Of a DNA stretch of 64,000 bases, positions 31,448-42,006 are shown piece by piece. Source of the stretch: Spirochaetia bacterium (lineage in GTDB: Bacteria > Spirochaetota > Spirochaetia > SZUA-6 > Bin103); contig CBDAOI010000003.1 in assembly GCA_965198005.1 (NCBI GenBank), positions 64,001 through 128,000 of the forward strand. The letters run 5' to 3'. Below the pieces are notes generated by a model. That model ran no database searches and had not been told where the DNA came from. It worked only from the letters and a program-made list of their open reading frames with translations. The translations under genes and the position numbers were made by a program. Every line of letters begins with the position of its first letter. Position 1 is the stretch's first letter.

Positions 31448-32680
31448 ATGAAACAAGATCTGTCGACCGCCGAGATCCTGGAGCTGCTGCACCACTGGCG
31501 CAGCGAACGTTACGTGGTCAACACCGCCAACACGGTGGAGGTGATCCTGTTCGGCAACTGCTTCACCGGGGTGGATATCGAGGGGCTGGACGCGGTCGAC
31601 GAGCTGTCGCGCAGCGGCCGCAAGCTGGTGTTCATCCCCAATCACCAGAGCGAGTACGACTGGATGCTGCTGCAGACCTATCTCGCGCAGCGCTACATCC
31701 GCACCGCCATCCAGGCCGGCGAGAACCTCTACGTCGGCCCGGTCGACACCTTCCTGCGCAAGTGCGGGGCGTTCATGATGATTCGCGACCGGCACGCGTT
31801 CTACGGCCGGCGCTGGGTGCGTGACGGGGTGCTGAAGCTGCTCGGCACCCGGCCGTTCGTGATCACCAAGGAACAGTACAACAAGCTGTACCCGGATCAG
31901 ATCAAGCGGGTGCTGGGCGAGGGGCTGCACCTGATGATCTTTCCCGGCTACGAGACCGACCGCGCCACCGGCGAGATCAAGTACGGCCGTTCCTACTCGG
32001 GCGAGTTCGCGGAGCTGTCCGCGTACGTGTTCCTGGTGGTGCGCGCCGCCATCCGCCAGATGCAGGTGGAGAACGCCCTGTACGTCCCGGTCAACATCTC
32101 CTACGAGCGGATCCCCGAGGACATCGTGTTCCGCCAGTATCAGGCGCGCTCGCGCAAGAGCAAATTCGCCAAGTACGTCTACGACCACTACTACGCGTTC
32201 GTGAAGATGCCGTTCGCGCGCCGCATTCGCGACCAGCGGTCGCGCGTGCTGATCCGGTTCGGCGCGGGGATCCCGGTCGATCGGCCGCTGCGGGCGCGCG
32301 GCATGGCGGCGCTGGTGCGGGAAGAGATGGGCAAGCTGATGCGGGTCTACGAGAGCACGCTGGTGTTCGCCTCGCTGAGCGATCGGTATAAGATGGGCCG
32401 TGCCGAGCTGGAGGAGCGGGTGGCGGCCAACCTGGAGCGGATCGAGGCCTACGGGCTGGACACGTCGCCCCTGTACACTGCCGACCGCCAGCGCCTGTCA
32501 CTGGAGCAGATGCTCGAGCGCACGGCCGCGATCTACAACTTTCCCGACGTTCCGATCATCCCCTCCAAGTCGTACATGACCCTGGAGTACGACGACCGGG
32601 AGATCTTCGTGCACCATCCCCACCTCGCCTCCTACTACGGCAACAAGCTCAAGCACATCCTGCAGGACGGCGCCGCGTGA
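31448..32680 (+). CDS. Glycerol-3-phosphate/1-acyl-G3P acyltransferase family protein
   Basis: NHQSEYD (HX4D), GAFM.IR, IFP and VPVNISYE motifs. Confidence 0.85.
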   Translation: MKQDLSTAEILELLHHWRSERYVVNTANTVEVILFGNCFTGVDIEGLDAVDELSRSGRKLVFIPNHQSEYDWMLLQTYLAQRYIRTAIQAGENLYVGPVDTFLRKCGAFMMIRDRHAFYGRRWVRDGVLKLLGTRPFVITKEQYNKLYPDQIKRVLGEGLHLMIFPGYETDRATGEIKYGRSYSGEFAELSAYVFLVVRAAIRQMQVENALYVPVNISYERIPEDIVFRQYQARSRKSKFAKYVYDHYYAFVKMPFARRIRDQRSRVLIRFGAGIPVDRPLRARGMAALVREEMGKLMRVYESTLVFASLSDRYKMGRAELEERVAANLERIEAYGLDTSPLYTADRQRLSLEQMLERTAAIYNFPDVPIIPSKSYMTLEYDDREIFVHHPHLASYYGNKLKHILQDGAA

Positions 32681-34809
32681 CCTCCGACCGGCGCGCGATC
32701 GCCGACACGCTCCAGGGGCTCAGCACGCGCTCCGACCCGGGCGAGGAGTATTCGCCGCTGCCCGACGGGTACGCACCCGGCCGCACCCGCTTCATCATCG
32801 TCACCGGCAGCGTGATCAGCGGTCTGGGCAAGGGGGTGTTCTCGGCCGGTCTGGCGTCGCTGCTGGAGGGCCGCGGGTATCGCACCAACCTGATCAAGAT
32901 GGACGGCTACTTCAATGAAGATGCCGGTACTCTGAACCCGTACCGTCACGGGGAGGTATTCGTGCTCGCCGACGGCACCGAGTGCGACATGGACATCGGC
33001 ACCTACGAACGGTTCGTGGACAAGGATTTCTCCCAGCACAACATCTTCACCAACGGCCGGCTGGCGCGCCGCATCAGCGAGCTAGAGCGCGGCGGCCGCT
33101 TCTCCGGCTCGGACGTGCAGTTCTATCCGCACGTGACCGGCGAGGTGATCCGCTTCGTGCGCGAGTCGGCGCTGGCGTACCGGGCCGACATCACGCTGGT
33201 GGAGATCGGCGGCACGGTGGGTGACGACGAGGTGCGGCCCTACGTCTCGGCGGTGAGCGACCTCGCCTACCAGGAGGGCGAGGGCAACGTGTTCTTCGTC
33301 AATCTGGCGTGGATCATCGAGGCCTCCCATCTCAACGAGCAGAAGAGCAAGGCGGCGCAGCACGGCACCCAGTTGCTGATGCAGATGGGGATCAAGCCGC
33401 AGATGCTGGTGTGCCGTTGCGAGAATCCGCTGGAGGGCGCCGTGCGGCGCAAGCTCGCGCAGCGCCTGCGGCTGCCGCAGCGCAACGTGATCGACCTGCA
33501 CAATCACGACTCGATCTACGCGGTGCCGGGGCATCTGGCGGCGCAGCAGGTGGACGGCATCGTGCTGGACTACTTCCGCCTGCCGGCGCGGCCGCACCGT
33601 CCCGAGTTCCGGTTCGACGGCTACCTGGGCCGGCTGGCGCGGGCGCGCGCGCCGGTGGTGGTGGGGCTCGCCGGCAAGTACATGGGGCCGCGCGACACCT
33701 ATGCCAGCATCCACGCGGCGCTGGAGCACGCGGGTTGCGCGTGCGGGGCGAAGGTGGAGGTGGTGGACGTGCCCACCGACGCCATCGAGCAGGCCGGCGG
33801 CCGCGACCGGCGGGTGGCGAGTGCCGCGGACTGCCTGGCCGAGCTGGACGGCATCATCGTGCCGGGCGGCTTCGGGCGGCGCGGCTGGGAGGGCAAGATC
33901 GCCTGCATCACGCACGCCCGCACCACCGGGCTGCCGCTGCTCGGCATCTGCTACGGGTTCCAGGCGGCGATGGTGGAGTACGCGCGCGAGTGCTGCGACC
34001 TCGGCGGCGCCAACACCACCGAGAACGAGGCGGGCGCCGCGGCGCCGGTGGTGTGCCTGCTGCCCGAGCAGTACGAGATCGAGGGAGTCGGGGGGTCGAT
34101 GCGCCTCGGCCAACAGACCGTCACGCTGCTGGCGGGATCGCGGGTGGCCGCCCTCTACGGGGCTACCCGGGCGGGTGAGCGGTTCCGCCATCGGTACGAG
34201 TTCAATCCGCTGTACCGCAGTATCTTCGAGGACGGCGGCGTGGTGTTCTCGGGCTGGGCGGCCGGGCAGCCGATCATGCAGGTGGCCGAGCTGCCGGAGC
34301 ATCCGTTCTTCATCGGCGTGCAGTTCCATCCGGAGTTCACCAGCCGGCCGGCGCGGCCGAGTCCACTGTTCCACGGCTTCGTGGCCGCCTGCCTGGAGCA
34401 CCGGCGCGCGGGTGCGGGCGGCGCGGGTACGGGCCGTGCGGGCGCGCGCGGCGCGGCGGCGGTACGGACAGCGGGCGGTGCGGACGGCGGCGACGGTGCG
34501 GGCGCGGCTGCGGCACGGACGGCGGCCGGCGCAAGCGCGCGGGCGGGTGCCGGTGCCGGCCGTGCGGGTACGGACGGTGCAGGCGGCGGCGGTGCCGGCG
34601 CGGGCGCGGCGAGCGGCCGGCACCCGCCGGGTCGGGGGCGGGCGAGCGCCCACCAGGGAAGCGCCGAAGGAAGCGCCGGCGGGGGAAGCGCCCACCGGGG
34701 AAGTGACGGCGCCGGCGCGCTCGGGACGGTGAGCGCCGGCGACGGTGGCGGGGACGGCGGCGGCGCCACGCCGGGGAGCGCGGTGGCCACGGCCGCGGGG
34801 GAGCCGTAG
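32677..34809 (+). CDS. pyrG: CTP synthase with long Gly/Ala-rich C-terminal tail
   Basis: VTGSVISGLGKG, HGEVFVLADG.E.D.D.G, GICYG, VQFHPEF. Confidence 0.97.
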   Translation: MTSDRRAIADTLQGLSTRSDPGEEYSPLPDGYAPGRTRFIIVTGSVISGLGKGVFSAGLASLLEGRGYRTNLIKMDGYFNEDAGTLNPYRHGEVFVLADGTECDMDIGTYERFVDKDFSQHNIFTNGRLARRISELERGGRFSGSDVQFYPHVTGEVIRFVRESALAYRADITLVEIGGTVGDDEVRPYVSAVSDLAYQEGEGNVFFVNLAWIIEASHLNEQKSKAAQHGTQLLMQMGIKPQMLVCRCENPLEGAVRRKLAQRLRLPQRNVIDLHNHDSIYAVPGHLAAQQVDGIVLDYFRLPARPHRPEFRFDGYLGRLARARAPVVVGLAGKYMGPRDTYASIHAALEHAGCACGAKVEVVDVPTDAIEQAGGRDRRVASAADCLAELDGIIVPGGFGRRGWEGKIACITHARTTGLPLLGICYGFQAAMVEYARECCDLGGANTTENEAGAAAPVVCLLPEQYEIEGVGGSMRLGQQTVTLLAGSRVAALYGATRAGERFRHRYEFNPLYRSIFEDGGVVFSGWAAGQPIMQVAELPEHPFFIGVQFHPEFTSRPARPSPLFHGFVAACLEHRRAGAGGAGTGRAGARGAAAVRTAGGADGGDGAGAAAARTAAGASARAGAGAGRAGTDGAGGGGAGAGAASGRHPPGRGRASAHQGSAEGSAGGGSAHRGSDGAGALGTVSAGDGGGDGGGATPGSAVATAAGEP

Positions 34810-36089
34810 TGCCGGCAACCGCGGTGGTGGGCGCCAACTGGGGCGACGAGGGCAAGGGCAAGCTGTGCGACTACCTGGCGGAGTCCTCCGATATCGTGGT
34901 CCGCTTTCAGGGCGGCAGCAACGCCGGTCATACGGTCATCAACCAGTACGGCAAGTTCGCCCTGCACCTGGTGCCGTGCGGGGTGTTTCACACCCATACC
35001 ACCAATCTGCTCGGCGCGGGCGTGGGCGTGAATCCGGCCCTGCTGCTGGCGGAGCTGGCCGAGCTGCAGGCGCGCGGCGTACCCAACGCGCGGGTGCTGA
35101 TCTCCGACCGGGCGCAGGTGGTGCTGCCGTTTCACGTCGAGCTGGACCGCCTGGAGGAGGAACGCCGCGGTGCCGCCAGGTTCGGCTCGACCCAGTCGGG
35201 CATGGCGCCGTTCTACTCCGACAAGTACCTGAAGGTGGGCATTCAGGTGTGCGAGCTGTTCGACGGCGCGCGCCTGCGCGTGCGGCTGGAGCCGTCGCTG
35301 GAGCGCACCAACGTGCTGCGCGAGCACTTCTACGGGGCGGCGCCGTTGCCGCTGGAGCCTCTGGTCGAGGAGCTGGCGGGACTCGGCGCCCGGATCCGCC
35401 CGCTGGTGGTGGACGCCGGCGCCCTGCTGCGCGACGCGCTCGACGCCGGCAAGCACGTTCTGCTGGAAGGGCAGCTCGGCGCGTTGCGCGACCCCGACCA
35501 CGGCATCTACCCCTTCACCACCTCCTCCTCGCCGCTGGCGGGGTTCGCCACGGTCGGCGCCGGCGTCCCCGCGCATGCCATCGACCGGGTGGTGGCCACG
35601 GTCAAGGCCTACTCCTCCTGCGTCGGCGCCGGCCCCTTCACCACCGAGCTGACCGGCGCCTGCGGCGACGAGTTGCGCGCGCGCGGCGGCGATGCCGGCG
35701 AGTATGGCGCCACCACCGGCCGCCCGCGCCGGGTCGGCTGGTTCGACACCGTGGCCACCCGCTACGGCTGCGCCGTCCAGGGCGCCACCGAGCTGGCGGT
35801 GACCCTGCTGGACGTGCTCGGCTACCTGGACGCCATTCCGGTCTGCACCGCCTACGAGGTCGACGGCCGCCAGCTACGGGAGTTCCCGACCACGGCGGCG
35901 CTGGAGCGGGCGCGCCCGGTATACGAGACCCTGCCCGGCTGGAACTGCGACCTCAGCCACGCCCGCCGGTTCGCCGAGCTGCCGTCCCAGGCCCGCGCCT
36001 ACGTGCGCACCATCGAAGCCGCCGCCGCCGTCCCCGTACGCTGGATCTCGGTCGGCCCCCGCCGCGAGCAGTTGATCAGGGTCGAGTGA
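34809..36089 (+). CDS. purA: Adenylosuccinate synthetase
   Basis: GANWGDEGKGK, RFQGGSNAGHT, EYGATTGRPRRVGWFD. Confidence 0.98.
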   Translation: MPATAVVGANWGDEGKGKLCDYLAESSDIVVRFQGGSNAGHTVINQYGKFALHLVPCGVFHTHTTNLLGAGVGVNPALLLAELAELQARGVPNARVLISDRAQVVLPFHVELDRLEEERRGAARFGSTQSGMAPFYSDKYLKVGIQVCELFDGARLRVRLEPSLERTNVLREHFYGAAPLPLEPLVEELAGLGARIRPLVVDAGALLRDALDAGKHVLLEGQLGALRDPDHGIYPFTTSSSPLAGFATVGAGVPAHAIDRVVATVKAYSSCVGAGPFTTELTGACGDELRARGGDAGEYGATTGRPRRVGWFDTVATRYGCAVQGATELAVTLLDVLGYLDAIPVCTAYEVDGRQLREFPTTAALERARPVYETLPGWNCDLSHARRFAELPSQARAYVRTIEAAAAVPVRWISVGPRREQLIRVE

Positions 36090-36129
36090 GGGAGGGGTTT
36101 CGTACCGAACTTCCGAGCGAGCGCACTAC

Positions 36130-37584
36130 CTATGAGACGTGAAGCGGGAAACGAACCCGGTCACGTCCTGTCTCAGCCAGCTCAAACGGCATGCGTAGTT
36201 TCGCCCCTTCCGGCGGTTGCAGATAGTCATACATCGTCGAAAGACCGAGCACGGATTCCCCGTCCTTGTTCGCACGCCAAGTTCCTGCCAGCGGGTAGCA
36301 TCGAAAACACGGCACCATGGATTCTCGGTACCGCATCGTGGTCTCCTTTGCAATCAATATGTCAGCGGGCTCCTGTAACTGAAGGAGATATGGGGAATGA
36401 GTGGCCAGAATGAGCTGACGCATCACGTTTCCATTTCCAATTTGGCTCCCGGTGTCCACGGCCAAGTCCCTCAGAAGCCCCTCCATGGCCGGCAACCGCT
36501 CAGGATGGATGCCGTTCTCCGGTTCTTCGATACAGAGTACCCCCCCGGATTCGGGGTCTTCCGCCAGAATGGCTAGGGCAAGAAAGCGCAGTGTGCCGTC
36601 CGATACAGCACTCGCGGAAAAGTGCTGACCGCCCGTCTCCTCAATCGACAGGGTGAGCAGTTCACGAACGTCATCACGGACCACGTCGACACAGGTTACG
36701 GGAACGAGTTCAGCCAGCCTTGCCGATATGCGCGCGGCGACATCACCATTTTCCCCATCGAACCGCTTCAATCGATTGAGCGCTCCGGCAAGGTGGGCAC
36801 CGTTGTCGGACACGAAAGCGGGGTCTCGTGCGACACGATCCGGACGCCGCAGGGCGCTCGGCTCCAGGGCGAGTAGTCTCCATTTCTGCATTTCGCGGCG
36901 TGCAGCCAGGATCGTTGGTGTCGCTATCGTGCTTGTGGTGCTGACAATCGTTCTGGGCGCCGTGCGGGCTGGGGCTCTCTGCCCTGGTCCCCTCGACCCG
37001 CCGTCTTGATGAACGATAATCTCGGGCGTGTCGTCTTCAGTGATCTCGGTGGAAATATAGCCGGTCTTGGCGAACCGCCGGTTCTTCACGGCAGAGTCTC
37101 GGAATCTCGACTTGGAATGAGGAAAGCGCAGCTTCTTGACGGCATCTCCCTGTCGAATCAACTGAAGCGATTCCGAGTGCAGTTCCAGATCGGAGCCTAG
37201 GCCGTCCGCCCTGGAGTCTCCACCCCTGAGACCGAGTTCTATTTCGTAGCGTAAGAAAGTTGATGTAGCCTGACCCGGGCGTCCGAAGTCATCATTCACT
37301 CGCTGGTCCACCAACATTTCGGCTGCAAGCCGGAACGAATCCTTGTGCAGGTTGTTGCCGCGAAAGAACAGGTCGTCCGGGCGAGCCGTGTTGCCCGTTC
37401 TAGAGCGTACCTGCAGCGCAGCTTCGAGGATGGAGTGATCCGCCAGCAGGGAAAGAAAGTGAATTGCATCGAAAATGTTCGACTTGCCGATTCCGTTCGG
37501 GCCCGCGATACACGTGTACGGACCGAAATCGACCGTAAAGTCGATGAGGTTCTTGAATCCGTCCGCTTCCAGGCGAGTCAGCAT
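36130..37584 (-). CDS. AAA_21/ABC-type ATPase (lower-GC cargo)
   Basis: GPNGIGKSN, VSDGTLRFL, IEEPENGIHP, ATHSP. Confidence 0.9.
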   Translation of the reverse strand: MLTRLEADGFKNLIDFTVDFGPYTCIAGPNGIGKSNIFDAIHFLSLLADHSILEAALQVRSRTGNTARPDDLFFRGNNLHKDSFRLAAEMLVDQRVNDDFGRPGQATSTFLRYEIELGLRGGDSRADGLGSDLELHSESLQLIRQGDAVKKLRFPHSKSRFRDSAVKNRRFAKTGYISTEITEDDTPEIIVHQDGGSRGPGQRAPARTAPRTIVSTTSTIATPTILAARREMQKWRLLALEPSALRRPDRVARDPAFVSDNGAHLAGALNRLKRFDGENGDVAARISARLAELVPVTCVDVVRDDVRELLTLSIEETGGQHFSASAVSDGTLRFLALAILAEDPESGGVLCIEEPENGIHPERLPAMEGLLRDLAVDTGSQIGNGNVMRQLILATHSPYLLQLQEPADILIAKETTMRYRESMVPCFRCYPLAGTWRANKDGESVLGLSTMYDYLQPPEGAKLRMPFELAETGRDRVRFPLHVS

Positions 37585-37650
37585 GTAGGTGCGGTAGCCT
37601 CCGTAGTCGTTAGTGTAGCAGCAATACTATGCACTATCAGGAAACTTGTC

Positions 37651-37771
37651 TCAAAGCGGTGCGCGGGTGGCCCAGGCCCGCGCCTACGTGCCCATCGAAA
37701 CCGCCGCCGGCGTCCCGGTACGGTGGAGCTCGGTCGGCCCCCGCCGCGAGCAGTTGATCCGCATCGACTGA
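37651..37771. repeat. Chimeric junction: nudC 3' tip fused to purA 3' tip
   Basis: 37657-37678 is identical to 39040-39061; 37671-37771 is a diverged copy of 35986-36089; the two overlap in cccaggcc. Confidence 0.92.
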
Positions 37772-37780
37772 CGTGCGGCG

Positions 37781-38886
37781 CTACCGGACGCGCGCGATGC
37801 CATGGTTCCTGATCTGGTGCTCAATCACCAGGGACGAGACGCCGAACTCGGTTCCCAACTCGTCAATATCATCCCCATCCACCACCCGTCTGCTTACTCG
37901 GCTCCGCAACCCCGAGGAAGGTGCGAGGAACTCGGCGGCAAAGGCACGATTGCGCTGTTGTCGTTCGGAATGAGCTCTGGTGAGCAACGTATCAGTGTCC
38001 GGTGACAACAGCACTTCAGACAGCGCCCGACAGAAGTGAAAGCGGCGGCGCTCGTCGCTGAGTTGGCGAAATGCAAATGCTGGAGTCCCGTGATCGTCGC
38101 GAGTAATGATCCCGTCCACCATGGCGGGCATACGGTCCGAGTCCAGCCGAGAGGTAGTCACTCTCTCAATCGACTCGGCATCCTCGCCAAGGGCCTCCGC
38201 TATCTCTGGCGTAGTCGGCAATGCAGCTCCGTCCAATCCCAAAAGCTCTCGCAGTTTCCGTGCACAATCGCACCCAAGCTCCCAGGGATGTGTCTCTGTG
38301 CCGATGTAAGGACGAACAGCATCGCCAAGAGACCGGAGCCGGTCCAGCGCAAGGCTATTGTCTCGCTTGGCGTTCGCGATGGTATGCACGACGGAGAACC
38401 AATCCTCGTAGGGACCGTCCGCTACGATCGCCGGCACTGCCTCGTCGAGCAAAGAACCCAGCTTCTCCGCGAGTTCAAGGATCCGACAGCGCATGTCTTG
38501 GTTCAGGGCATACGGATCCCACCCCAGGCCGGCCGCGGTTCTGCAGAACTGTAAATCTTCTTCATCGGCGCTCATAATGGCTTCCCACTCGCTTTGAAGA
38601 TACGTGTCGCGGACCTCCAGCGCTGTCAGTCGGCGCATCACCTGATCGACGAGGCCGGCGCACGTCTCGCGGAACGCGTCGCTGTCTACCCAGGCTATTC
38701 CCTGGTCGAGGAATTCGACGTTGCTCCACTTGAGAAGTCACGAACTGTCTTCGCGCGCCCGTCCAACACGCGGGTAATGATGGAGTCTCCGGCCCGGATG
38801 CACAAAGAGGCCCAGGTGGCGGAGAATTCCGGACCGCTGATCCCTTCCGCATCAACCCAGTCGATCTCGAAACTGAACTCAGGCAT
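37781..38886 (-). pseudogene. ImmA/IrrE-like domain protein with internal frameshifting deletion near 38735
   Basis: MPEFSFEIDW...ATWASL...TVRDF, then a frame change into VEFLDQG...RRFHFCRAL...RAFAAEFLAP...FGVS. Confidence 0.75.
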
Positions 38887-39033
38887 AGAACTCCTCGATG
38901 CCGGCCGGCCACTCGTCTTCGTAGGCAATGACACGTCGGCGGGGCCGCTTGCGTCTGCTGGCACGCATACTCGTCTATGGGACCATACCATGCGACCGGT
39001 TGCAACGGGTAGAACGGGCAGAGTTGCTTATCG

Positions 39034-39963
39034 TCAGCACGGTGCGCGGGTGGCCCAGGCCTTGATCAGGTGGTGGGCGATGGCGATGGGGCCGGGGAGG
39101 GTGAGGCGCGGATTGTTGCCGTCGAGCGCCAGCAGCACCTCGCGGCGGTCGAACCAGCGGACGTCGGCCATCTCCTCGTGGTCCATGCGGATGGTGGTGG
39201 TGGCCGCGTCGGCCAGGCAGCCGATCATGAGCGAGGATGGGAACGGCCACGGCTGGGAGGAGTGGTAGCGCACGTTGCGCACGCGCACGCCGGCCTCTTC
39301 CATCACCTCGCGCGCGACCGCTTCCTCGATTGCCTCGCCCTGGTCCACGAAGCCGGCCAGGGCGGAGTAGATCTTGAGCCGCGACAGCCGGCCGCGGGTC
39401 TGCCCGAGCAGGCAGCGGTCGCGCGCGACGTCGGCCACCACCGTGATCACGACCGGATCGGTGCGCGGGAAGTGCTGCATGCCGCAGGCCGGGCAACGGC
39501 GCACCTGACCGCCGCGCTGCTTGACCGTGGGCTGCCCGCAGCCCGAGCAGAAACCGTACCGGTTGTGCCAGTCGAGGTGCGCTCGCGCCTGGGCCAGGAT
39601 GCCGGTTTCGGGGAGCGCCAGCAGGCTTCCGGCGGTGCGGCAGTCCGTAAACTGCCAGCCGCGCTCGTCGCGGATCCGGTCGAGCGCCGCCTGACAACCG
39701 GACAGATCGACCGCGAAGTGGGCCCGCCCGTCCATTACCCCCAGCAACAGCGGTTCCGCCGCCGGCGCCAGCGGCCGCACCCAGGCGGCGGCGAGCCAGC
39801 CGAGCGCCGCCTGCGCGCCGTCGGTCAGCAGCACCTCCAGGTCGCGGAACGGCAGCCACCGGCTGTCGGGCGCGCGGGCCGCGGCCTCCAGCCAGGCTTC
39901 GTCACGCCGCGCGCGGTCGCCGCGGTCGAGGGGATTGGCAGCAAAGGTGTGTGTAGGGCTCAC
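39034..39963 (-). CDS. nudC: NADH pyrophosphatase
   Basis: CxxC zinc ribbon, FPRTDP, Nudix box, SQPWPFPSSLMIG. Confidence 0.96.
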   Translation of the reverse strand: MSPTHTFAANPLDRGDRARRDEAWLEAAARAPDSRWLPFRDLEVLLTDGAQAALGWLAAAWVRPLAPAAEPLLLGVMDGRAHFAVDLSGCQAALDRIRDERGWQFTDCRTAGSLLALPETGILAQARAHLDWHNRYGFCSGCGQPTVKQRGGQVRRCPACGMQHFPRTDPVVITVVADVARDRCLLGQTRGRLSRLKIYSALAGFVDQGEAIEEAVAREVMEEAGVRVRNVRYHSSQPWPFPSSLMIGCLADAATTTIRMDHEEMADVRWFDRREVLLALDGNNPRLTLPGPIAIAHHLIKAWATRAPC

Positions 39964-40170
39964 CCGTCTCCCACCCAAGTGACGCACAAGCTTGAGTAGT
40001 GTAGCTTGCGCCCCGGTGCGCCCGTATCAACAAGGCATGAAGTAATCTGCGGCGATCTCCATCCCTTTCCGCCGTCTCCGGAAACGCTTCGGGGCCGAGT
40101 ATTACAAGGGCAAGCAGGGTTGTACATACTACGATCTGAAAACGGCTCTCTTAGTCCTTCGGCTTAATGG

Positions 40171-40644
40171 CTAAGGCATGACGGCGGCCCTGTCGACGGA
40201 GTCGCCCTCATTTGTTGGGGAGTCAACTGGAACACAAGCATCACCACGGATTGCGGCGGACCGTATTCGATATCCGACGGTCGCTTCTACGAGCCGAGCC
40301 TTCAGGTCTCTCGATGACGCTTCTTTCGGCACCGGTATGTCGATCACCCTTGCGAAACGGGTAAGGTCCGTCTTTGATTGCAGCATACCGTCGATCAATT
40401 CTACAGCGCGTTCTCTCGTATTAGCCTTTCCCAATGCGTAATTAAGTTGGCTCATTTCTTCATTAGAACAACGATTTGGTTTTTCGCGTCTCTTTGTCTG
40501 TTTATCGGCAGGACGAATCTCTATCTTCAAATCCCCATCCAAGATGCGCTCAACGTCGTCGTCGTTCATCGCTTGAATCTGCTTTGCGAAATGATGCAAC
40601 AGCGCTACAACTTGTTGCTTTACAGATGTCCGTTTGGTCGTCAT
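40171..40644 (-). CDS. Hypothetical protein (lower-GC cargo)
   Basis: GGAGG RBS; ATGA-coupled to an upstream gene remnant ending VVQEIEILADEFERRLA*. Confidence 0.7.
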   Translation of the reverse strand: MTTKRTSVKQQVVALLHHFAKQIQAMNDDDVERILDGDLKIEIRPADKQTKRREKPNRCSNEEMSQLNYALGKANTRERAVELIDGMLQSKTDLTRFARVIDIPVPKEASSRDLKARLVEATVGYRIRSAAIRGDACVPVDSPTNEGDSVDRAAVMP

Positions 40645-40958
40645 GCGAGCCTCCGCTCAAACTCGTCTGCGAGTATCTCAATTTCCTGCACCACGATGTT
40701 GTGTGTGAAGTTCGCCACCTGTCGTACGGGGACGCAGCAGCTTTGCAACGGACTGTGGTTGGAATGCCAGGGATACCGCTACTACAGGCATGTGGCCCCT
40801 CGTACTGATCTCGTAGGCAAGAGCGTATACTTGACCTCGGGGTACGGTCAAACGGGCTCACGGCTGGTTGTGGCCACCTGTCGATGTCGGAAGGGTCTTG
40901 CCCCTCCTGTCCCCGTCGGCCGCACTTCGTTCTGTCCCGCGAGGCGCAGATGGGAGAT

Positions 40959-41792
40959 TCATTCGGCGATCCCCTGTGCGCGAAGGAAGGTGAGCACCGC
41001 CGGCCACGGGCGCGGGCAGTCGTTGTGGCCGCACGGCAGGCGCACGGGGGCCGTGCCGGCGGCGCGCGCCAGTTTCTCGGCATGCGCAAACGGAATCACG
41101 CGGTCGCGCGCGCCGTGCAGCACCAGCGTGGGGGCGGCGCCGGAGGCCACGGCCGGGAGATTGTCGAACGGATCGAGCACCCAGGCGCGCGGCAGGAACC
41201 AGGGCATGAGGTCGGCGACGCTGGTGAACGTCGACTCCAGCACCAGCGCCGCCAGCGGCCGCTGCACGGCGAGCGCGCACGCGGCGCCGCCCCCGAGCGA
41301 CCGGCCGTAGGCGACGATGCGCGCCGGATCGACGTCCGGGTGGCGGCGGGCGATGTCGTAGGCGGCGATCACGGTGGCGGTGATCGACTGCCGGCTGGGT
41401 CTGCCGCTGGAGCGGCCGTAGCCGGGGTATTCGACCAGCAGCACGCCGAATCCGGCCGCGGTCATGGGCGCGAACGGCGCCACCCAGTGGTCGATCAGCT
41501 CGCCGTTGCCGTGCAGGTAGATGATGAGCGGAAAGGGAGTGGCCGCCGGCGTGCCGGCGGCGGCGGCCGTCGTGGGCTGCGCGGGCGCCGCCGGCCGCAG
41601 CAGCCACGCCTCGACCGCGTCCTTGGGGCCGAGCCGGAGCCGCTCGCTGCCAGCGGGCAGGTGCGGCGGGCTCGCCGGCAGTGGCGGGCGCGGGTACATG
41701 AACCGCCGCTGCAGCCCGATCGCCGCGCCGACCACGAGCACGACCGCGAGCAGGGCGGCGAGCGGAATGGTGAGGCCGGGGGTCAGGCGCAC
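40959..41792 (-). CDS. Alpha/beta hydrolase
   Basis: HGNGE, YPGYG, GRSLGG, HGARD and GHND. Confidence 0.92.
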   Translation of the reverse strand: MRLTPGLTIPLAALLAVVLVVGAAIGLQRRFMYPRPPLPASPPHLPAGSERLRLGPKDAVEAWLLRPAAPAQPTTAAAAGTPAATPFPLIIYLHGNGELIDHWVAPFAPMTAAGFGVLLVEYPGYGRSSGRPSRQSITATVIAAYDIARRHPDVDPARIVAYGRSLGGGAACALAVQRPLAALVLESTFTSVADLMPWFLPRAWVLDPFDNLPAVASGAAPTLVLHGARDRVIPFAHAEKLARAAGTAPVRLPCGHNDCPRPWPAVLTFLRAQGIAE

Positions 41793-42006
41793 TCAGCGAC
41801 CGGCGATCGCGTCGATCTCGATGCGGTAGTCCTGGGCCAGTCCGGCCTGCACCGTGGTGCGCGCCGGCCGCGGCTCGGGGAAGTACTCCTGGTAGACGGC
41901 GTTCATCTGCGCCGGAGATGAACAGCAACTCGCCGTGGCGGATGGCCGGGGTGTACGGCCCTGCCGGGGCCGGGCCGCGGTCCGAGGTCACCGGTGTCTT
42001 GTACAT
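41793..42006 (-). pseudogene. RidA-family protein with internal deletion and frameshift
   Basis: PAPAGPYTPAIRHGELLFISG is joined out of frame to QMNAVYQEYFPEPRPARTTV...IEIDAIA. Confidence 0.88.

Follow-up and report, generated by a model that had tools for sequence, protein, structure and literature searches.

How did a second block of genes come to lie between purA and nudC in a Spirochaetia bacterium, and why does a second end of each of these genes, fused to one another, lie in the middle of the interval? We examined this question in a stretch of 64,000 nucleotides (G000:C3:64001-128000, from here on the window), which belongs to a 4.89-Mb genome assembled in four contigs. The gene order at the locus is purA, an ATPase gene, a nudC tail fused with a purA tail, an ImmA-like gene and nudC. 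In our interpretation, two diverged purA-nudC intervals were probably joined by one homologous crossover and one crossover at a microhomology. What remains at the locus is the scar of a recombination event; it is no functioning system. Its features, whose coordinates in an earlier sequence-only reading of the same DNA were all confirmed by open reading frame (ORF) calls, Pfam searches and alignments, are the following:

34809..36089, plus strand: purA (adenylosuccinate synthetase), intact, C-terminus IRVE before the stop (Pfam Adenylsucc_synt PF00709, E 4.6e-155)
35986..36089, plus strand: resident purA 3' end (A), first bases cccaggcc (alignment to the tip at 37671-37771)
36130..37584, minus strand: cargo 1, ABC-type ATPase, HEC-01A-like (Pfam AAA_21/AAA_15; PADLOC HEC-01A)
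37651..37678, minus strand: nudC 3' tip (B'), stop plus 8 codons, WATRAPL before the stop (identity to the resident nudC end)
37671..37678: the 8-base microhomology cccaggcc, the illegitimate join (overlap of both tips)
37671..37771, plus strand: displaced purA 3' tip (A'), IRID before the stop (alignment to 35986-36089; also protein search)
37781..38886, minus strand: cargo 2, ImmA/IrrE-like (Peptidase_M78) pseudogene (Pfam PF06114; tblastn; three-frame translation)
39034..39987, minus strand: nudC (NADH pyrophosphatase-type NUDIX), intact, WATRAPC before the stop (Pfam NUDIX, NUDIX-like, Zn_ribbon_NUD)
39040..39061: resident nudC copy (B) of the 22-mer described below, inside nudC

The fused tails and their divergence

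On the nudC side of the fusion, the 22 bases at 37657-37678 are exactly those at 39040-39061 in the resident gene. This 22-mer occurs twice in the window, against 0.00 copies expected from 100 shuffles, and these are also its only two copies in the whole 4.9-Mb genome. Three bases past it the tip keeps the triplet TCA (a stop codon on the other strand), after a codon in which all three bases differ from resident nudC, and past the stop the tip and the resident copy are wholly different. On the purA side, positions 37671-37771 and 35986-36089 are 91% identical; they are set apart by 9 substitutions and a 3-base deletion that keeps the frame, and their alignment contains an exact block of 31 bases. 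The purA tip was also recovered by a protein search, with 76% identity across purA residues 392-426. The alignments thus bear out what had been reported from the sequence alone, that is, a nudC tip identical over 22 bp with its stop at the same spacing, and a clearly diverged purA tip.

The two tips overlap in the 8 bases cccaggcc at 37671-37678, as that reading had also noted, and the same bases are found in both parent genes, at 35986-35993 in purA and at 39054-39061 in nudC. The direct repeat of the purA end starts exactly at this shared core, and the 14 bases just before it are likewise identical to the nudC 3' end. A layout of the form A ... B'A' ... B with a microhomology at the join is produced when two copies of an interval running from one gene to another stand in tandem. 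The two units differ in purA (9 sites and one codon), in the last codon of nudC and in their unrelated cargos, which show no similarity to each other (best match E 0.38 over 11 bases). Since neither the cargo nor either tip is the same in the two units, one homologous plus one illegitimate crossover is the simplest account of their joining. Both cargos are also poorer in guanine plus cytosine (GC) than their surroundings, with 57.8% in cargo 1 and 60.1% in cargo 2 versus 72-73% in purA and nudC.

Do the tips represent alleles, as the sequence-only reading proposed, or decayed copies? Their divergence from the ends of the resident genes amounts to ~9-11%. The resident nudC and the tip both have RAP before a last residue that is C in one and L in the other, while 11 relatives have, after the conserved WAT(R/G/C), the residues E(Q/R/P/G)(F/L/S/I), most commonly as RE(Q/R)F; the shared RAP, unlike the 11 relatives, suggests that both nudC ends came from the same narrow lineage. 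In the same way, the purA tip and the resident end are mutual nearest sequences at 91% identity, with the resident end 70-80% and the tip 73-83% identical to nine same-genus sequences. Polarising the 9 purA substitutions placed 5 derived states in the resident copy and 2 in the tip, with 2 more ambiguous; the codon deletion was derived in the tip, in frame and with the stop codon retained. Because five of the nine substitutions are derived in the functional resident copy, the purA tip is not merely a decaying copy. As far as substitution patterns can tell, the data fit a pair of alleles, both still functional as they diverged; the earlier reading had likewise proposed alleles.

The events may be pictured as follows. 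Two diverged versions of one chromosomal interval, each lying between the 3' ends of purA and nudC, would have been put in tandem, one parental version with the ATPase gene and the other with the ImmA-like gene. A homologous crossover would have occurred inside purA or inside nudC; both genes are continuous and intact. An illegitimate crossover would have occurred at cccaggcc, between the last 104 bases of purA and the last 28 of nudC, giving the product purA - cargo 1 - [nudC tail / purA tail] - cargo 2 - nudC. Both cargos would have decayed since then, or would have been incomplete on arrival. The nudC tail within the scar points to a relative that had this interval, too, as the source of the incoming DNA.

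Three routes could lead to this product: homology-facilitated illegitimate recombination (HFIR) of DNA imported from a close relative, unequal crossover between two chromosome copies (a partial diploid), or Campbell-type entry of a fragment that had closed into a circle at the microhomology. The product would be the same in all three, and the sequence cannot separate them. The layout, the join, the diverged tails and the lack of a recombinase nearby can be read directly from the DNA, whereas the existence of two single-cargo parents, the way in which the DNA entered and the identity of the resident allele are inferred.

The cargos and the purA-nudC interval in relatives

HEC-01 is a candidate defence system composed of an ABC ATPase (HEC-01A) and a TOPRIM protein (HEC-01B), which, according to the part of the preprint consulted, did not protect against the phages used there (Payne et al. 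2024 preprint, 10.1101/2024.01.29.577857). Cargo 1 resembles this system in matching the HEC-01A model (PADLOC PDLC04184, E 4.3e-95, residues 1-406), but it differs in having no adjacent HEC-01B gene. In 17 related ATPase loci from other genomes, analysed with 3 kb on each side of the ATPase, a partner gene of ~205-220 codons follows the ATPase in all 17, mostly directly, and matches HEC-01B (E 1.1e-25). No such partner was found in positions 35001-38000 of the window, where the best match had an E-value of 0.024 over 22 residues. Moreover, the last 14-16 residues of the ATPase have no counterpart in its relatives, and 40 bases separate the end of the gene from the stop codon of purA. Proteins most similar to the ATPase, at 65-73% identity, come from metagenome-assembled genomes labelled Gammaproteobacteria, Thiotrichales, Vicinamibacterales and Immundisolibacterales. 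Judged by these protein matches, such unrelated host labels point to horizontal spread of the ATPase together with its TOPRIM-type partner.

Cargo 2 was described in the sequence-only reading as an ImmA-like gene. The family assignment held, with a Peptidase_M78 match (PF06114) of 27.1 bits against a cut-off of 22, but the gene is not intact. The homologs, among the matches listed, are mostly 430-468 amino acids long and cover the 286-residue ORF in full. In the tblastn alignment, two pieces in different frames were recovered: 38886-38737 corresponds to homolog residues 1-50, and 38728-37787 to residues 123-436. Between them, near 38729-38737, the frame shifts, and nothing corresponds to residues ~51-122 (~72 codons). 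With ~72 codons missing and the frame lost, cargo 2 is a pseudogene. The 286-codon ORF was accordingly rejected as an intact ImmA-like gene and belongs to the remains of a gene of ~440 codons, at 37781-38886.

The purA-nudC interval had also been taken for a variable intergenic slot. Within 11.3 kb downstream of purA, in 8 loci of 7 same-genus genomes, we found nudC in none (0/8), and neither of the two cargo genes; in 7 of the 8 loci the gene after purA is aroA. Of 10 same-genus genomes, 9 have a nudC ortholog, but away from purA: in the five with both genes on one contig the distance is 0.8-1.7 Mb, and in the others nudC is on a different contig. What relatives have between purA and aroA is found at C2:433 kb and C3:484-487 kb in the present genome. 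From this displacement and the lineage-specific adjacency it follows that the interval was rebuilt here. The slot, with purA next to nudC, is thus specific to this lineage.

Other traces of rearrangement lie near the locus. At 41802-41912, just upstream of an alpha/beta-hydrolase gene (40959-41792), we found the final 37-38 residues only of a 125-residue gene that stands head-to-head with aroA in same-genus relatives, a second rearrangement relic of the purA-aroA interval. Beyond nudC, at 39988-40958, there is a low-GC stretch (54%, dropping to 46%) with a 157-codon ORF on the minus strand (40171-40644) that matched nothing in Pfam or PADLOC, and foreign-looking DNA is thus present on either side of nudC. 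In another genome of the genus (G001) purA occurs twice, each copy with 81% identity to the query and with its own, different downstream DNA; they are ~300 kb apart across the ends of a single contig, in opposite orientation.

Alternatives to the proposed joining of two intervals

An in-situ tandem duplication of one purA-to-nudC interval, by slippage or unequal sister exchange at cccaggcc and followed by divergence and differential gene loss, would yield exactly such a join, with the end of one unit fused to the start of the next. Deletions are evident in the region, given the absence of HEC-01B and the missing ImmA-like codons. We nonetheless consider this origin unlikely. The units share nothing beyond their tips, a deletion would need to end exactly at the nudC stop codon, and the excess of derived purA changes in the functional resident copy is contrary to the decay expected of a spare one.

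A slightly diverged duplicate of a 3' gene end beside low-GC DNA is also the usual mark of a site-specific integrative element. Such an element at the purA 3' end would have brought a replacement gene end, and its integrase and most of its length would later have been deleted. The genome is rich in tyrosine recombinases (46 matches to PF00589), but none of these 46 and not the single match to PF00239 (resolvase/serine recombinase) lies in the window, and the nearest recombinase match, at C3:529576, is ~426 kb away. The absence of a nearby integrase had been correctly noted from the sequence alone. In addition, the segment between the purA repeats measures ~1.6 kb and has one gene, and the element would leave unexplained why the 14 bases before the core match the nudC 3' end. 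We find this origin very improbable.

The join itself is also found in public data. Six public runs from two studies contain 88-96% of the sampled words, and three of them (X2, X3 and X7) were examined. In X2 and X3, which come from the two studies, a contig of 1251 letters covers 36508-37758 with no difference from the window, and in X7 a 681-letter contig with a single difference extends over 37078-37758. These contigs start inside the ATPase gene, stop at 37758, and have depths of 17.4 (X2), 15.2 (X3) and 8.3 (X7), close to those of both cargos. At 36086 and 36092 X3 has other bases than the window, which suggests a slightly different strain with the same structure. In a run from a third study (X1, 6% of sampled words) nothing was found at the join, and the ATPase gene was represented by two exact pieces of 123 and 151 letters at a depth of 2-2.6. 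The stacked form was the only one seen in the examined runs.

It is hardly conceivable that two co-existing single-cargo strains were merged by the assembler, a chimera that the sequence-only reading had considered in case no reads crossed 37600-37800: the genome does come from mixed samples and the contig depth of purA exceeds that of the cargos in three runs, but contigs of three runs and two studies cross the join with 0 or 1 differences, at a depth equal to that of both cargos, and the 8 bases shared by the parents are too few to mislead an assembler working with words of, presumably, 31 letters. As to purA, its 3' part (35537-36076) has a contig depth of ~28 in X2, ~20 in X3 and ~28 in X7, compared with 17-20, 15-17 and 8-14 for the cargos (36050-39074). 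Co-occurring strains may share purA without the interval, contig depth being a weak measure.

Several observations weigh against the joining of two purA-nudC intervals, or against parts of it. Public contigs end where the two purA ends share their exact block of 31 bases, and none of the contigs listed for runs X1, X2, X3 and X7 covers the whole stretch. The contigs confirm the join, while the linear order rests on the four-contig assembly. The extent of the nudC tip past 22 bases rests on the TCA kept after three mismatches, with a chance of ~1/64 for that codon and 3/64 for any stop. The divergence of 9-11% between tails and resident ends exceeds the level usual within a species. The purA-nudC adjacency was unseen in the same-genus genomes examined, and with it the supposed donor pool. 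No single-cargo allele and no same-species sequence was seen among 40 related genomes, in which purA protein identity reaches at most 81%, and the best 80 metagenome loci, where the top purA identity is 80% and the others are at or below 63%.

Two further points bear on a wider claim of the sequence-only reading, namely that such joining is a route for accumulating defence cargo. Cargo 1 is an incomplete candidate system and cargo 2 is a pseudogene, and we find no support here for an accumulation of useful defence genes. The geometry of the proposed two-allele joining is upheld by the interleaved layout, the diverged tips and the unrelated cargos, but this functional part of the proposal was abandoned.

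Known systems and other repeats in the genome

The joining of two intervals would be a known type of recombination event, and both comparable displacement scars and the mechanism are already in print. HFIR has been described in the natural transformation of Acinetobacter, Streptococcus pneumoniae and Pseudomonas stutzeri, in experimental papers cited in the part of PMC5361080 consulted. As in HFIR, the present locus would have a long-homology anchor on one side and a microhomology of a few bases (8 here) on the other, with non-homologous DNA trapped between them and no need for a site-specific recombinase. It differs in that part of the distal flanking gene would have come in with the incoming end, implying a donor with the same interval, and in that the join duplicated ~100 recipient bases with no recipient DNA deleted.

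In the sections of their paper used here, Kirchberger et al. 2017 (PMC5361080) propose HFIR for type VI effector-immunity arrays, in which a new allele enters via the conserved upstream part and the old 3' end persists downstream, with its companion gene, as an orphan. The same sections note, citing Jackson et al. 2009, that a like origin had been proposed for the strings of orphaned 3' ends at rhs loci. The purA-nudC locus resembles these rhs, contact-dependent inhibition (CDI) and type VI arrays, as far as they are described there, in that an old 3' gene end would have been displaced downstream by a new allele. However, the displaced gene is the housekeeping purA and not a polymorphic toxin gene, there is one displacement only, and the scar also has the tail of the opposite flanking gene, a feature that those sections do not report for the arrays.

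Variable hotspots between core genes that lack integrases have been reported as well (Oliveira et al. 2017, PMC5635113; Johnson et al. 2023, PMC10250203; Hochhauser et al. 2023, PMC10121019). In the portions of these papers considered, they share with our locus the low-GC accessory genes of defence-like families, lying between conserved genes without mobile-element genes nearby. Those studies compared many strains of one species, whereas here a single genome with a junction scar is described.

The locus is a clean natural example of a second gene block gained at a variable site without a mobile-element enzyme, and its fused nudC/purA tails record the exact crossover. It is doubtful that one-sided recombination, stacking alternative occupants of an interval, is a common mode of integrase-free island growth in bacteria, archaea and viruses. 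If that were true, fused tails would be dated seams, from which the order of acquisitions could be read. A single case is an illustration and not a principle; its value would rise with parental alleles in population data, or with frequent seams marking island growth.

A scan of the genome for other fused 3'-tip junctions, as suggested by the sequence-only reading, recovered the purA/nudC case but gave no clear second one among the candidates with tested flanks. The self-comparison of the genome yielded 402 local direct repeats after filtering, 45 of which were tip-like candidates, and it was in the flank test on 40 of these 45 that purA/nudC was recovered. The remaining flank matches resembled interrupted paralog alignments or multi-copy repeats, and one cluster of them was inspected. 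This cluster, at C3:464-484 kb, was rejected as a set of tips, being a paralogous gene family with a common C-terminus.

The paralogs (G000:C3:464000-484500) share the C-terminus GVEFSRDTRN(V/L)TAFEV, and copies of this C-terminus alone, 65-95 bases long, are found at 482468-482563 and 484401-484467. Immediately upstream of purA, the CTP synthase ORF (32677-34809) has 710 codons and its stop overlaps the purA start. Its tail of ~140 codons is rich in Ala, Gly and Arg, reaches 85% GC and contains imperfect repeats at a 15-base offset.

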